Below are positions 10,951 to 13,784 of a DNA stretch of 41,300 nucleotides, in pieces. Positions within the stretch are counted from its first letter, which is position 1. Every line of letters begins with the position of its first letter. The stretch comes from a virus (lineage: Duplodnaviria > Heunggongvirae > Uroviricota > Caudoviricetes): the IMG/VR virus record IMGVR_UViG_2778261153_000009, positions 1 through 41,300 of that record; one strand, written 5' to 3'. The position numbers and the translations under genes are program-made. A model generated the notes under the pieces. That model made no database searches and was not told the origin of the DNA. It saw only the letters and a list, made by a program, of their open reading frames with translations.

Positions 10951-11313
10951 TTAACGACCTGCTGCGCGGAGTTTTCCGTCAGGTTCACCGGCAAGAGTCA
11001 GTAATTGTCCCTGGTCTTCCTGCAGAATAGTCAGGCGACCACCGCGATTGACATACATCGGCGTTTCGGTGGTGTCTTCTTCGGAAATTTTCCCGCGGTT
11101 AGTTGGGCGAACATATGAGAGTTTGTGTTTGATTTTCACACGGTTCTCATCAAACGGTTCGATTTCCAGGTTGAGCGAGACCTTACCTTTGGTTTTCGTG
11201 TTCATCACACCGGAAGCGACTTCACTGAGAACTGCGCCGATTTTGGTTTCAAATACGCCGCCGTCCAGCTCCCCGATAAATGCCTGCACATCAGTACTGC
11301 GTTCGCTAGCCAT
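10951..11313 (-). CDS. yfdP: Prophage protein (YfdP-like)
   Basis: 120 aa from ATG at 11313 with SD GAGGAG; upstream part of the longer ORF is GC-rich leader, not coding. Confidence 0.55.
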   Translation of the reverse strand: MASERSTDVQAFIGELDGGVFETKIGAVLSEVASGVMNTKTKGKVSLNLEIEPFDENRVKIKHKLSYVRPTNRGKISEEDTTETPMYVNRGGRLTILQEDQGQLLTLAGEPDGKLRAAGR

Positions 11314-11781
11314 TTTGCTGCTCCTCATCATATCGACCCTGCAAGGTCGGTTAGTTTCTCCACAAAACAGAGAAGAACACCTGCGGTGACTGCCGCCCGG
11401 ATGGATTGGGTTATGAGCCCGTCGTCCGGTGATGCTCTTCTCTGTTTTGTAAAAAGGACGGTACCAGCCGGAAGCAAGGGTACAAGCTGGTACCGCCAGG
11501 ACTACACACAGCATAAAGTTGTGGTGCCGGGTGCCTCCCGGTGCCTGGCGAAGGTTGCACACCAGGCGGGTGGGTATCCACAGAAGGTCGACTGTCAGCC
11601 TCAACCTTAACCCGCGTGCGCTGAGCCGCATTCACCACAACGCTAAGGATTCTCTCTGGTTGAAAATACTTAGCTGTTATGTGCCTGCTTTTAGCCACAT
11701 CAGGCGAGGTGGACCTGGTTATTCCCCAACAACAAGGATTCGGTTAATCTGGTTATCCCCAACAACGCAAAAGGAAAAGAA
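11314..11781. promoter_or_regulatory. GC-rich structured non-coding region between divergent genes (leader/regulatory or ncRNA)
   Basis: 15-bp perfect inverted repeat 11362..11376 / 11436..11450; 9-bp inverted repeat 11460..11468 / 11486..11494; two direct repeats CTGGTTATYCCCAACAAC at 11715..11733 and 11749..11766. Confidence 0.35.
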
Positions 11782-12216
11782 ATGTCCGGTAATATCTATA
11801 CGCTGTACAAATCCCACTGTGAAAATGTTGGAAAGTATCGGGGCATTGAAATCAGTGGGGTAGTGTCATCAGTCGAAATAAGCAAAGTTGAATCAAGGGC
11901 AACATTACTTACTCTTTTGGACCTTGTCTTACATGAGCACCGGAAGAAATTCGGCACTCCCTATAATCAGTTGAATGGGAAAAAGGCTCTGGTTCACCTT
12001 ATTCTGATGAAGCATCACTGGATGCCAAAACAGATTAATGAGATGAAATTTGATGAACTTCTTCTTTCAATTCAGGATGAACTCACACTTGATAAAATAA
12101 GCGTAACCGCCCAGAAATTTTTAGATTATCGAGACTGGAGATCACAAATTCATCACTTTGATGATTTTGACGAAAATGAATGGGATCCTAATTTGTCTGC
12201 ACAATATCTAAAGTAA
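11782..12216 (+). CDS. Hypothetical protein, oriented against the early-left operon
   Basis: 144-aa ORF, ATG preceded by AAAAGGAAAAG; no family recognised. Confidence 0.5.
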   Translation: MSGNIYTLYKSHCENVGKYRGIEISGVVSSVEISKVESRATLLTLLDLVLHEHRKKFGTPYNQLNGKKALVHLILMKHHWMPKQINEMKFDELLLSIQDELTLDKISVTAQKFLDYRDWRSQIHHFDDFDENEWDPNLSAQYLK

Positions 12217-12394
12217 CATCCTGTGATAAAACCGTGATTTCCTGATCCAGTTTTTTTAAGGAGTCTATTGTTTCCTGTCGATAAGACAGCACTTCACGAA
12301 GCTGGTTTATAGCTGCCAGCTTCTTTGTCATCCACTCATAAATTTCCTCATCTGTGTAGCCAGGCGCGACGATTTTGGGTTCTGTTTTGTGCAT
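12188..12394 (-). CDS. Small hypothetical protein
   Basis: ATG at 12394 with SD GAGGAG 7 nt upstream. Confidence 0.4.
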   Translation of the reverse strand: MHKTEPKIVAPGYTDEEIYEWMTKKLAAINQLREVLSYRQETIDSLKKLDQEITVLSQDVTLDIVQTN

Positions 12395-12453
12395 TTCACA
12401 TCTCCTCAAGTTATCAGTTACTTGTTGATGGGGACCAGATTGTTAAAGAGCTA

Positions 12454-12477
12454 AGCGTCCTGTAGGGCGCTTTTTTG
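12454..12477 (+). terminator. Putative intrinsic terminator
   Basis: AGCGTCC-TGTA-GGGCGCT stem followed by TTTTTT. Confidence 0.4.
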
Positions 12478-12689
12478 TTGCTAACGAATCATCCTGGACT
12501 TCATATGCCCCAGGCGGCTACTTCGTGGGCGTCCTGCCTGTTCGTTTTTGACATTTACTGACTGCTTACGACACATGCACCGTGTTGCAACCAGATTTTG
12601 TTGTAATCCTGTAGTTGGTCTGGAACAAAAGATAAAATTAAATTGCGATATATGCAAGTGATTTTTGCGAAATATGCAAATTTATAGGT

Positions 12690-12713
12690 AATAAAAAGCC
12701 ACCTTTCGGTGGC
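12690..12713 (-). terminator. Putative intrinsic terminator downstream of repressor gene
   Basis: GCCACC-GAAA-GGTGGC hairpin followed by T-run on minus strand. Confidence 0.45.
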
Positions 12714-12733
12714 CGATGGATGGGATATTGAGG

Positions 12734-13426
12734 TTAATTATGTCTCTTAAGGGTTTGCGACTGACTGATTAAGACCTTTCCAAAGACCATGAATCGGTGT
12801 TCGTTTTCGCTAGTAATTCCCCATTCACGGTAAATCTGGTTATCAGAAATCACCAGCAGTTTGTCAGGAATCATTTGAAGTCTTTTAACGTATATTTTGT
12901 CATCAAAACCAAAGACATATATACCATCACCATCAAACTGATTGATGCTGACATCAACGAAGATGAGATCTCCTGGCTCAATGGTTGGACACATACTGTC
13001 CCCACGAACGTTGATAACTTTGATGTGATTGGCTGGTCGTCCGCCGAACATTGATACAGCATTATCAGTTCTGTATTCGATGGCATGAATCACATCAATG
13101 ACATCACCGCCCTGGATAAGGCCATTTCCCGCACTGGCACTGATATCCAGCATTTCAATACGGAACACATCCTTCACCTGCGCAACATCCTCATTATTAC
13201 TGTTTTTATATACAGTATTACTTTTGTGGGCAGAGGTAAAGAGATCAGCAATATCAACACCTAAGCTCTTGGCAATATTACTCAGTGTTTGTTCGGTAAA
13301 TTGTTTTTGCTTACCCGTTTCTAAGCGCGAGATGTTCGCCGCATCTACTCCTATTGCTTCAGCGAGATCGGCGATTTTCATGTTCTTCGCTTGGCGAAGT
13401 TGTCTGACTCGGTTTCCTATGTTCAT
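12734..13426 (-). CDS. CI-like phage repressor (HTH + S24 LexA-like peptidase domain)
   Basis: N-terminal HTH MNIGNRVRQLRQAKNMKIADLAEAIGVDAANISRLE; C-terminal autocleavage-type domain; divergent from cro-like gene. Confidence 0.85.
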   Translation of the reverse strand: MNIGNRVRQLRQAKNMKIADLAEAIGVDAANISRLETGKQKQFTEQTLSNIAKSLGVDIADLFTSAHKSNTVYKNSNNEDVAQVKDVFRIEMLDISASAGNGLIQGGDVIDVIHAIEYRTDNAVSMFGGRPANHIKVINVRGDSMCPTIEPGDLIFVDVSINQFDGDGIYVFGFDDKIYVKRLQMIPDKLLVISDNQIYREWGITSENEHRFMVFGKVLISQSQTLKRHN

Positions 13427-13523
13427 GCGTTTATTACATTTCTTTATTGCGTGATAAGCAAATCAACTTGCGCAAAATAATTGCGTGAAATAACATGCAT
13501 AACGCGCAATATCTGGAGGACAT
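13427..13523. promoter_or_regulatory. Immunity operator/promoter region (OR-like)
   Basis: Four copies of TTGCG(T/C)(G/A)A at 13447, 13468 (palindrome TTGCGCAA), 13481 and ~13502 between divergent cI-like and cro-like genes. Confidence 0.5.
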
Positions 13524-13784
13524 ATGCAATCACCATTACGAAATGTGCGTAAGGCGCATGGTTTCACTTTGCAGCATGTTGCTGCGGGTGTTCAAGTCAA
13601 TCCAGCGACGTTGAGTCGTATTGAGAGGCTGGAGCAGATTCCATCTATCGAGCTTGCAGAACGTTTAGCCAATTTTTTTAAGGGTGAAGTCAGCGAAATG
13701 CAGATTCTTTATCCGGCACGTTTTCAATCTAGCCAAAATCAGAATGGGTTTAAACCACAGGAACAGGAGGTGAACCGTGGGTAA
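13524..13784 (+). CDS. Cro-like HTH regulator
   Basis: 86-aa HTH protein, SD GGAGGA, transcribed divergently from repressor. Confidence 0.6.
   Translation: MQSPLRNVRKAHGFTLQHVAAGVQVNPATLSRIERLEQIPSIELAERLANFFKGEVSEMQILYPARFQSSQNQNGFKPQEQEVNRG

Follow-up and report, generated by a model that had tools for sequence, protein, structure and literature searches.

What is encoded by a long, repeat-rich stretch of phage DNA that lies between two genes and has no recognisable protein product? The question arises for positions 11314-11781 of a 41.3-kb window (the whole stretch of viral DNA analysed here), which represents an Escherichia coli lambdoid prophage of the SfV/SfIV/e14 type. The stretch is bordered by yfdP (minus strand, ATG at 11313) on one side and by a gene of the ECs1072 family (plus strand, ATG at 11782) on the other. 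An initial annotation, made from the sequence, had described it as a non-coding region acting at the level of RNA, at a place where small RNAs (sRNAs) or termination-control sites of the early-left operon would sit, and both the character and the position were borne out. The stretch encodes, on its minus strand, a folded prophage RNA of the STnc100/PasD family, behind which comes a terminator hairpin resembling that of DicF. The whole is a divergent variant of these known kinds, unannotated and in a new operon position.

The G+C fraction of the stretch is 0.55-0.56 compared to 0.38-0.49 in the flanks, as had been indicated before. The perfect 15-nucleotide (nt) inverted repeat reported earlier (11362-11376 and 11436-11450; 0 matches expected by chance) is present and extends into 25-nt arms with 84% complementarity. 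The second inverted repeat exists as well, but comprises 10 perfect base pairs (bp) (11459-11468 and 11486-11495) and not 9 bp. A third one (11518-11526 and 11633-11641), whose stem closes the main RNA domain, was missed. Thus the region had been flagged correctly, while its dominant part, a 124-nt domain of the STnc100 family, went unrecognised. The region is 100% identical in several E. coli chromosomes of RefSeq, and it shares 98-99.8% identity with the corresponding region of the phages Kati, vB_EcoM-689R6 and SfIV.

A permissive Rfam scan revealed a full-length match to the STnc100 covariance model (RF02076) on the minus strand from 11671 to 11448 (42.4 bits, E=1e-7); at the gathering threshold, a scan of the whole window gave no match. 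The 22-nt 3' core of STnc100, CACCGGGAGGCACCCGGCACCA, occurs exactly once in the window (11522-11543, minus strand), with 0 occurrences expected by chance. When viral contigs were scanned for exact matches to this core, more than 120 loci were found, which fall into about 53-61 sequence clusters. Our own covariance model, R1, was built from 30 diverse members and scores the window core with 80.9 bits, the alignment being free of non-canonical pairs. With filters switched off, no second core copy with E<0.1 was detected in the 41.3-kb window (the next best hit has 11 bits, E 0.17). The Rfam STnc100 model gives 73-131 bits for canonical copies, 39.5 for SfV, 40.6 for phiES15 and 35.1 for ST64B; same-subtype relatives range from 30.5 to 40.6 bits and lambda-like late-leader variants from 30 to 38 bits. 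The subtype therefore scores under the Rfam gathering threshold and is missed by standard pipelines.

The members of the family share a common architecture. A closing stem P1, (N)UGGUG...CACCA(N), is followed by an AAU junction and by P2, a helix of 5 bp with a single bulged base, whose UNNGC loop is closed by a C-G pair. The unpaired segment 3' of P2 pairs with the loop of P4 and so forms a pseudoknot, a CGCGG junction precedes P4, and the last hairpin, CCGGG-AGGCA-CCCGG, directly abuts the 3' strand of P1. The window RNA has the secondary structure common to STnc100 (P1, P2, P4 and the 3' hairpin, with covariation), and it resembles STnc100 in the order of the helices, in the P1 sequence GGUG...CACC, in the AAU junction, in a P2 with a UNNGCG-type loop and a bulge, and in P4. 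Like STnc100 it is prophage-borne, contains the identical 3' core, and is succeeded by a hairpin of the Rho-independent terminator type (11497-11457, then CCUUUUUAC). It differs in the central domain and in P2, which reads GCGGC/GC(A)CGC where canonical copies have CCCCC/GG(A)GGG; in three of the five pairs the two bases are exchanged, while register, bulge and loop are kept. The pseudoknot is not part of the Rfam structure. In addition, the window copy lies not in the Q/lysis/stx late region but in the leader of the early-left promoter (PL) upstream of yfdP, and it has no promoter-like sequence of its own.

Covariation was assessed in 80 distinct relatives, with shuffles and slid partners as controls. 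Standard pairs are formed in 87.7% of the cells, against 74.1% in the shuffles and at most 48% in the slid controls. Cells in which both partners are changed number 380, compared to 139 in the shuffles; such double changes occur in 22 of the 30 pairs, and compensatory changes are seen in P1, P2, P4 and the pseudoknot. The pseudoknot helix, which lies outside the model, is paired to 70% with double changes in all six of its pairs. At least six contiguous pseudoknot pairs can be formed in 75% of the distinct elements but only in 15% after the partners have been swapped, and more than 20 different sequence pairs are involved, among them AAGGUUG/CAACCUU in the window, AAGGCUGG/UCAGCCUU in phiES15 and AUCAGC/GCUGAU in canonical copies. 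A scan of species-representative genomes was keyed on the P2 subtype and is hence unbiased for the 3' hairpin; there the stem covaries (CCGGG/CCCGG, CCUGG/CCAGG, UCGGG/CCCGA) and the loop AGGCA is kept. The pairing is conserved among the relatives, and covariation supports every helix plus a pseudoknot that is lacking in the Rfam annotation.

Canonical STnc100 copies are expressed in enterohaemorrhagic E. coli, one of them confirmed by northern blot, and no function is established for STnc100 in the literature. PasD was described as an Hfq-dependent sRNA from northern blots and from partners found by RIL-seq (sequencing of ligated, interacting RNAs). PasD and STnc100 were reported to be structurally homologous, prophage-borne and usually located near Q and lysis genes. 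A relationship of the window RNA to PasD1 and PasD2 of enteropathogenic E. coli is suggested by this published homology. No tRNA-like gene is present in the stretch, as judged by ARAGORN (0 genes) and by Rfam (no tRNA match).

Inverted and direct repeats close to an immunity region could also be DNA-level sites such as operators, recombination sites or an origin, with RNA structure being incidental. The direct repeats could bind a protein, and no informative covariation accompanies the conservation of the GCCTG-N13-CAGGC module at 11683-11712. The two strands are, however, not equivalent. The minus strand of the stretch folds at -169.4 kcal/mol (z -6.2 relative to shuffles) and the plus strand at -152.2 kcal/mol (z -3.6), so that the minimum free energy of the minus strand is 17 kcal/mol lower; G-U pairs arise on the minus strand only, and R1 matches only there. 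Compensatory changes preserve pairing and not sequence. An array of operators had also been considered for the stretch in the initial annotation, but nothing supports it: the repressor operators differ in sequence and lie elsewhere, at 12643-12679 and 13447-13461. We consider a DNA-level function very unlikely. In 5' to 3' direction the minus-strand fold consists of a multi-branch domain closed by the third inverted repeat, a 13-bp hairpin with CCUUUUUAC, a hairpin of about 22 bp, a small hairpin and the Shine-Dalgarno sequence of yfdP. The coordinates of these and further features are compiled in the table.

Features of the stretch and its surroundings in the window, and tandem arrays of related elements in viral contigs
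Feature	Position	Strand	Description or basis
Core structured RNA, STnc100/PasD superfamily, 'GCGGC-P2' subtype	11517..11640 (124 nt)	minus	Rfam and own model R1
P1	11640-11633 paired with 11526-11519	minus	
AAU junction	11632-11630	minus	
P2	11629-11614	minus	5 bp, bulged A, loop UCAGC
Pseudoknot 5' strand AAGGUUG	11608-11602	minus	
P4	11566-11544	minus	loop holds pseudoknot 3' strand CAACCUU (11557-11551)
Invariant hairpin CCGGG-AGGCA-CCCGG	11541-11527	minus	
Conserved single-stranded motif UGCUGUGUGUAGUC, candidate sRNA seed	11500..11513	minus	between core and terminator hairpin
T1, DicF-like hairpin and intrinsic terminator	11449..11497	minus	13 bp, GGCGGUACCAGCU/GGCUGGUACCGUC, then CCUUUUUAC; fold, DicF alignment
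I1, long hairpin	11362..11450	minus	stem of about 22 bp with branched top, then GUGGAG; fold, ST64B comparison
Small hairpin CGACCUUGCAGGGUCG	11349-11334	minus	sequence and fold
Shine-Dalgarno sequence GAGGAG	11326-11321	minus	
yfdP start codon	11313-11311	minus	RefSeq annotates yfdP from this ATG
Upstream module	11642..11712	minus	GCCUG-N13-CAGGC inverted repeat within CCACCUCGCCUGAUGUGGCUAAAAGCAGGC (11712-11683), hairpin 11674-11642
Two direct repeats CTGGTTAT(T)CCCCAACAAC	11715..11766	plus	AAGGA motif after each; CA-rich, unstructured
PL	about 12657-12629	minus	-35 TTGCAT, -10 TATCTT; overlaps operators
cI-like repressor gene	12734-13426	minus	
cro-like gene	13524-13784	plus	
Tandem arrays	L059 4380-5462 and 8380-8517; L020 373-990; L028 1726-2343; L012 2324-3350		STnc100-type elements

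The stretch could, on the other hand, encode a protein related to YmfH or an N-terminally extended YfdP. The K-12 genome has ymfH annotated across the homologous DNA, the annotation of SfIV comprises a YfdP of 226 amino acids (aa) as well as a plus-strand open reading frame (ORF) at this place, and stop-free stretches reach about 100 aa. No Pfam or PHROG family is matched by any ORF of the stretch, though, while each of the flanking genes has a PHROG family, and the equivalent ORF is labelled "hypothetical protein, frameshifted" by the Prokaryotic Genome Annotation Pipeline. Close relatives as well as ST64B and phiES15 differ by 1-nt indels and by large replacements, and the substitutions track base-pairing and not codons. 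Homology to the yfdP of K-12 begins at 11332, only 19 nt upstream of the ATG at 11313. Taken together, a coding function is extremely improbable, and thus both the coding and the DNA-site reading are unlikely.

In the e14 element of K-12 the coding sequence ymfH (b1142) overlaps a copy of the RNA which is 95.7% identical (NC_000913.3, 1201260-1201382) and scores 64.7 bits with R1; the 3' hairpin of this copy is mutated (CACCGGGGGCACCCGACACC). The annotated gene ymfH is probably a mis-annotated RNA element. In a study of retrons, overexpressed ymfH was found among the triggers of the RcaT toxin, which might be an effect of the RNA. The CPS-53 prophage of K-12 was considered as a model for the locus and rejected; it does not contain the element, and its homology ends at 11332.

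The initial annotation had stated that none of the stems is followed by a U-run and that they are hence no simple terminators. This holds for the plus strand only. The functional strand is the minus strand, and there two stems do resemble terminators: the hairpin 11457-11497 with CCUUUUUAC and the long hairpin with GUUUUGU. The first of them, T1, corresponds to the repeat previously given as 9 bp. T1 folds at -25.7 kcal/mol (z -3.7) and has the properties of an intrinsic terminator, a GC-rich stem with a U-run immediately after it on the transcribed strand. A C/U polymorphism at 11486, opposite G11468, is tolerable only in the minus-strand RNA. Within the family, a terminator-like hairpin is located not more than 200 nt downstream of the element in 54 of 61 clusters, compared to 16% of random segments.

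The single-stranded motif UGCUGUGUGUAGUC, which lies between core and T1, is common to the window, e14, ST64B, phiES15 and a Citrobacter locus. The hairpin 3' of it is entirely different in ST64B and phiES15. A conserved unpaired stretch combined with a variable terminator is the usual anatomy of Hfq-type sRNAs. When 18 distinct close relatives are compared, variable sites number 7 in the 124 nt of the core, about 20 in 53 nt of T1 and about 24 in 89 nt of I1. A riboswitch-like mechanism was considered for canonical copies, in which the 3' arm of P2 (GGAGGGG) would pair exclusively either within P2 or with the terminator (CCCCUCU); it was rejected, as the window, ST64B and phiES15 types contain no equivalent.

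T1 can be aligned with DicF of K-12 and of E. albertii over the hairpin and terminator UGGCGG.A.CAG...CCGCC-UUUUU. As in DicF, a short single-stranded 5' part and a terminator lie within a repressor-controlled early-left operon, and the same core subtype adjoins DicF in K-12 Qin, Sakai Sp4, E. albertii, Shigella and Citrobacter. With hairpin, terminator and neighbourhood all corresponding, the T1 hairpin is, as judged by the alignment, homologous to that of DicF. The differences are nevertheless considerable. Segment 11449-11513 scores 15.9 bits (E=1.5) with the DicF model RF00039, for which the gathering score is 48 and K-12 DicF reaches 76.7 bits. The order is DicF-core-dicB in Qin but core, DicF-like hairpin, long hairpin and yfdP in the window. 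The 5' segment is UGCUGUGUGUAGUC in place of the UUUCUGGUGACGU of DicF, and the loop differs as well, so that the sequences with which DicF pairs to ftsZ, xylR, pykA and manX are not found in T1. If T1 has targets, these should therefore differ from those of DicF.

The second terminator-like stem, I1, contains the 15-bp repeat of the initial annotation and folds at -47.8 kcal/mol (z -7.6). Its U-tract GUUUUGU is the base of its own stem (ACAAAAC/GUUUUGU). The stem is kept in ST64B via paired changes, and G-U pairs are found on the minus strand only. According to the predicted fold, I1 may be a second terminator or a processing site for a double-strand-specific RNase.

Upstream of the core a further module is co-conserved with it, which can be aligned between the window, SfV, phiES15, PhiR29, Kp4884-1 and Pocitis76 and folds with z -3.0. 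The CCACCUCGCCUGAUGUGGCUAAAAGCAGGC part is found upstream of the RNA in phages of E. coli, Shigella, Cronobacter, Klebsiella and Hafnia. In a Hafnia phage a terminator follows directly after CCACCUCGCCUGAUGUGGCUAAAAGCAGGC, in the place of the core. By eye, 11683-11712 was also considered as a sigma-70 or sigma-54 promoter; this was rejected, since the spacing is not conserved between the variants.

PL is overlapped by two palindromic operator-like sites, TTGCATAT(A/T)TCGCAA, at 12643-12657 and 12665-12679, which are located downstream of the terminator of the cI-like gene (12697-12714). A diverged operator-like site is found between cI and cro (13447-13461). The PL leader furthermore carries GCUCUUUAACAA (12438-12449), which equals the consensus of rrn-type boxA and comes right after the hairpin AAGCGCCCUACAGGACGCUU (12436-12475, minus strand). 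On the plus strand this hairpin together with a T-run is the terminator of the ECs1072-family gene. The boxA was rejected as a nut site; it is missing from the leaders of ST64B and mEp460, and the hairpin beside it also serves the moron gene as plus-strand terminator.

The direct repeats next to the ECs1072-family gene are real and end 15 nt before its ATG, as stated initially, but they are not both of 18 bp: the first comprises 19 nt (11715-11733, CTGGTTATTCCCCAACAAC) and the second 18 nt (11749-11766), with 0 such repeats expected by chance. They differ by a 1-nt indel and in the position of a Y, and Tandem Repeats Finder did not call them. The plus-strand fold of this segment is weaker than that of shuffles (z +1.7). 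The repeats had been listed together with the inverted repeats; they are not part of the same element and travel with rightward moron genes. The same cassette is found ahead of an unrelated gene of 163-171 aa in PhiR29_1 and in Klebsiella phage Kp4884-1, a degenerate one ahead of sieB in Hafnia phage Pocitis76, and it is missing from SfV, phiES15 and e14, all of which keep the RNA. The repeats are thus a putative 5' control region of the rightward moron gene, apart from the RNA element. The ECs1072-family gene (phrog_5286, 11782-12216, plus strand) and an ORF of 68 aa (phrog_1744, 12188-12394, minus strand) are convergent with an overlap of 29 nt. The former is a mobile moron, which in Sakai Sp4 is located in the replication region. 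A link of the Sakai gene ECs1072 to the RNA was rejected, since it is located elsewhere and unlinked.

The element is widespread. Of 5426 complete E. coli genomes, 1879 contain DNA closely similar to the core and the upstream module (window 11505-11712), and the RNA subtype is also present in phages of Shigella, Salmonella, Cronobacter, Citrobacter, Enterobacter and Klebsiella. In ST64B, PL is connected to a yfdP homologue by an uninterrupted leader of about 750 nt, which contains the core, a terminator and a long hairpin in this order. In phiES15 the core and a terminator precede kil/gam-type genes. The literature search did not reveal a named sRNA of ST64B at this position. The rightward operon of ST64B (sb40/sb41 region) contains a match to the Hfq-binding RNA IsrK, which with 64.3 bits is above the Rfam threshold. 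In mEp460 a divergent element of 27 bits occupies the same position as the window core, with the same closing stem and a hairpin CCGG-AGAUCAGCA-CCGG. We take this element to be similar to a stretch downstream of lambda tR'; lambda itself gave no match with default filters.

In K-12 Qin and Sakai Sp4 the core subtype has DicF, with a terminator of its own, on one side and dicB on the other. R1 assigns 71.8 bits to the copy of Sakai Sp4 and 68.2 bits to that of K-12 Qin, for which Rfam gives 34.4. The Qin copy is situated at about NC_000913.3 1649455-1649582 and is unannotated. In the study of the dicBF operon no structured element between dicF and dicB is mentioned. Two Enterobacter chromosomes contain the subtype about 25 nt upstream of a gene for a LuxR/GerE-type regulator of 186 aa, beside a cytochrome b561 gene and with the stem UCGGG/CCCGA; the locus may be a prophage remnant. 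Some contigs have canonical copies that begin with the +1 of a TTGACA/TAAATT promoter, right behind a Q-like gene and before a terminator and the holin, and in other contigs copies are found 3' of the tRNA genes ileZ-argN-argO. In viral contigs there are also tandem arrays, in which 3-6 STnc100-type elements recur about every 255 nt and each element has a terminator of its own.

What, then, does the RNA do? The interpretation that we consider probable, and the best one, is a terminated RNA of the PL leader that acts as an sRNA and gates the delayed-early genes. The analysis shows how the RNA is related to known families, its fold and covariation, its strand, an anatomy like that of terminators, the lack of coding and the pattern of conservation; that the transcript starts at PL and ends at T1, and that it serves as sRNA and gate, is what we infer. 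The early-left operon would have the stretch as its untranslated leader, made of RNA modules and read leftward from the minus strand. The transcript from PL would pass antisense through the ECs1072-family moron gene, fold into the 124-nt pseudoknotted domain (11640-11517) and expose UGCUGUGUGUAGUC. T1 would come next and then I1, just before the ribosome-binding site of yfdP. Most transcripts would end at T1, by which a stable, structured small RNA would be released that may act in trans through UGCUGUGUGUAGUC. Its relatives STnc100, in canonical copies, and PasD do accumulate as discrete RNAs. Only transcripts that read through or are antiterminated would reach yfdP-yfdQ-yfdR...xis-int. The region would then be both the source of an sRNA and a gate for the delayed-early genes.

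Several observations weigh against this interpretation. The STnc100 score of the window RNA stays under the gathering score of 47. The loop of T1, with about 15 nt, is unusually large, its U-run contains five U only, and a terminator scanner that considers loops of 3-8 nt did not list it. No complement to UGCUGUGUGUAGUC beyond chance was found in the window, and so intricate a fold with invariant loops is unusual for an sRNA that works by base-pairing only. Between 11000 and 13600 no sigma-70 promoter was found right upstream of the RNA or for the rightward gene, except for a weak site at 12028. In Qin and Sp4 the core sits after the DicF terminator and 27 nt before the start codon of dicB, and in Enterobacter and one Escherichia locus it is 25-35 nt ahead of an ORF. 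A terminator therefore does not follow the core in every case, and the core itself may have a role in cis.

Such a role would mean that the core acts as a cis-acting RNA, which either binds RNA polymerase or an elongation factor and confers resistance to terminators, similar to put of HK022, or binds a protein and controls the stability or translation of the downstream message. The pseudoknotted fold with its invariant loops (AAU, UNNGCG, CGCGG, AGGCA) and covarying stems is in line with this, as is the fact that the element is always found in antiterminated operons, in some contigs at the +1 of a promoter after a Q-like gene and before a terminator and holin. ST64B and mEp460 contain no ORF between PL and the terminators, so that no N-like protein is encoded there, and in Qin, Sp4 and Enterobacter the core abuts the start codon of the next gene. 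Yet the core has no similarity to put, HK022 is without a match, and the rightward operon of the window contains no second copy, unlike the pair putL/putR. In Qin and Sp4 the nearest terminator lies before the core, copies in late leaders are accompanied by Q-like proteins, and the many self-contained cassettes of element and terminator, including the tandem arrays of 3-6, better fit sRNA genes or decoys. On balance we regard a cis-acting core as possible but rather unlikely.

The comparison with known leader RNAs is similarly divided. As with put of HK022 and nutL-tL1 of lambda, the window has a structured leader RNA of the early-left operon before the first strong terminators, and some relatives have no N-like ORF before the RNA. 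In contrast, neither put, which consists of two stems of about 70 nt in total, nor boxB has sequence or structural similarity to the core, which moreover lies about 1 kb from PL and not adjacent to it. The immunity region of HK022 gave no STnc100 match, R1 did not match HK022 either, and the architecture differs from the two stems of put. Where put has copies 3' of both early promoters, there is a single copy in 41.3 kb here. The 6S RNA of lambda and StxS, short leader transcripts from PR' to tR', offer another parallel: canonical STnc100 copies in some contigs fill exactly the interval between promoter and first terminator after a Q-like gene, and for the section from PL to T1 we propose the same principle, a terminated leader that maybe doubles as an sRNA. 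They differ in that the window copy lies in the left operon, and lambda has no R1 match with default filters.

Independently of the terminated sRNA that we favour, it can be asked what the fold itself is for. Tentatively, the STnc100/PasD/'ymfH' RNA might be a conserved pseudoknotted domain of five helices with invariant loops, and might not primarily be a base-pairing sRNA, although we hold this for doubtful. It would then bind a partner that is itself conserved, for instance RNA polymerase, the ribosome or some other protein of host or phage. The core is found in antiterminated operons at three kinds of sites, the PL leader, the +1 of late promoters after Q, and the dicF-dicB spacer. If true, phages would have, beside put and nut, another widespread class of RNAs that act in cis or as decoys.

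As the element falls under the Rfam threshold, genome annotations leave a gap at its place or list a "hypothetical protein" with a frameshift there, and in K-12 e14 the protein gene ymfH; recognising the RNA removes spurious ORFs from the annotation. As by-products two re-annotations in K-12 are suggested, that of ymfH and that of the dicF-dicB spacer, which has long been studied and holds a conserved folded RNA. The STnc100/PasD and DicF families of sRNAs become linked as neighbouring modules of early-left operons. The pseudoknot and the invariant loops, which are added here to the STnc100 fold, raise the question whether these RNAs bind a factor and do not only base-pair. Finally, the likely first termination point of the left operon is located in phages of the SfV/e14 type, which are without an evident N-like antiterminator.

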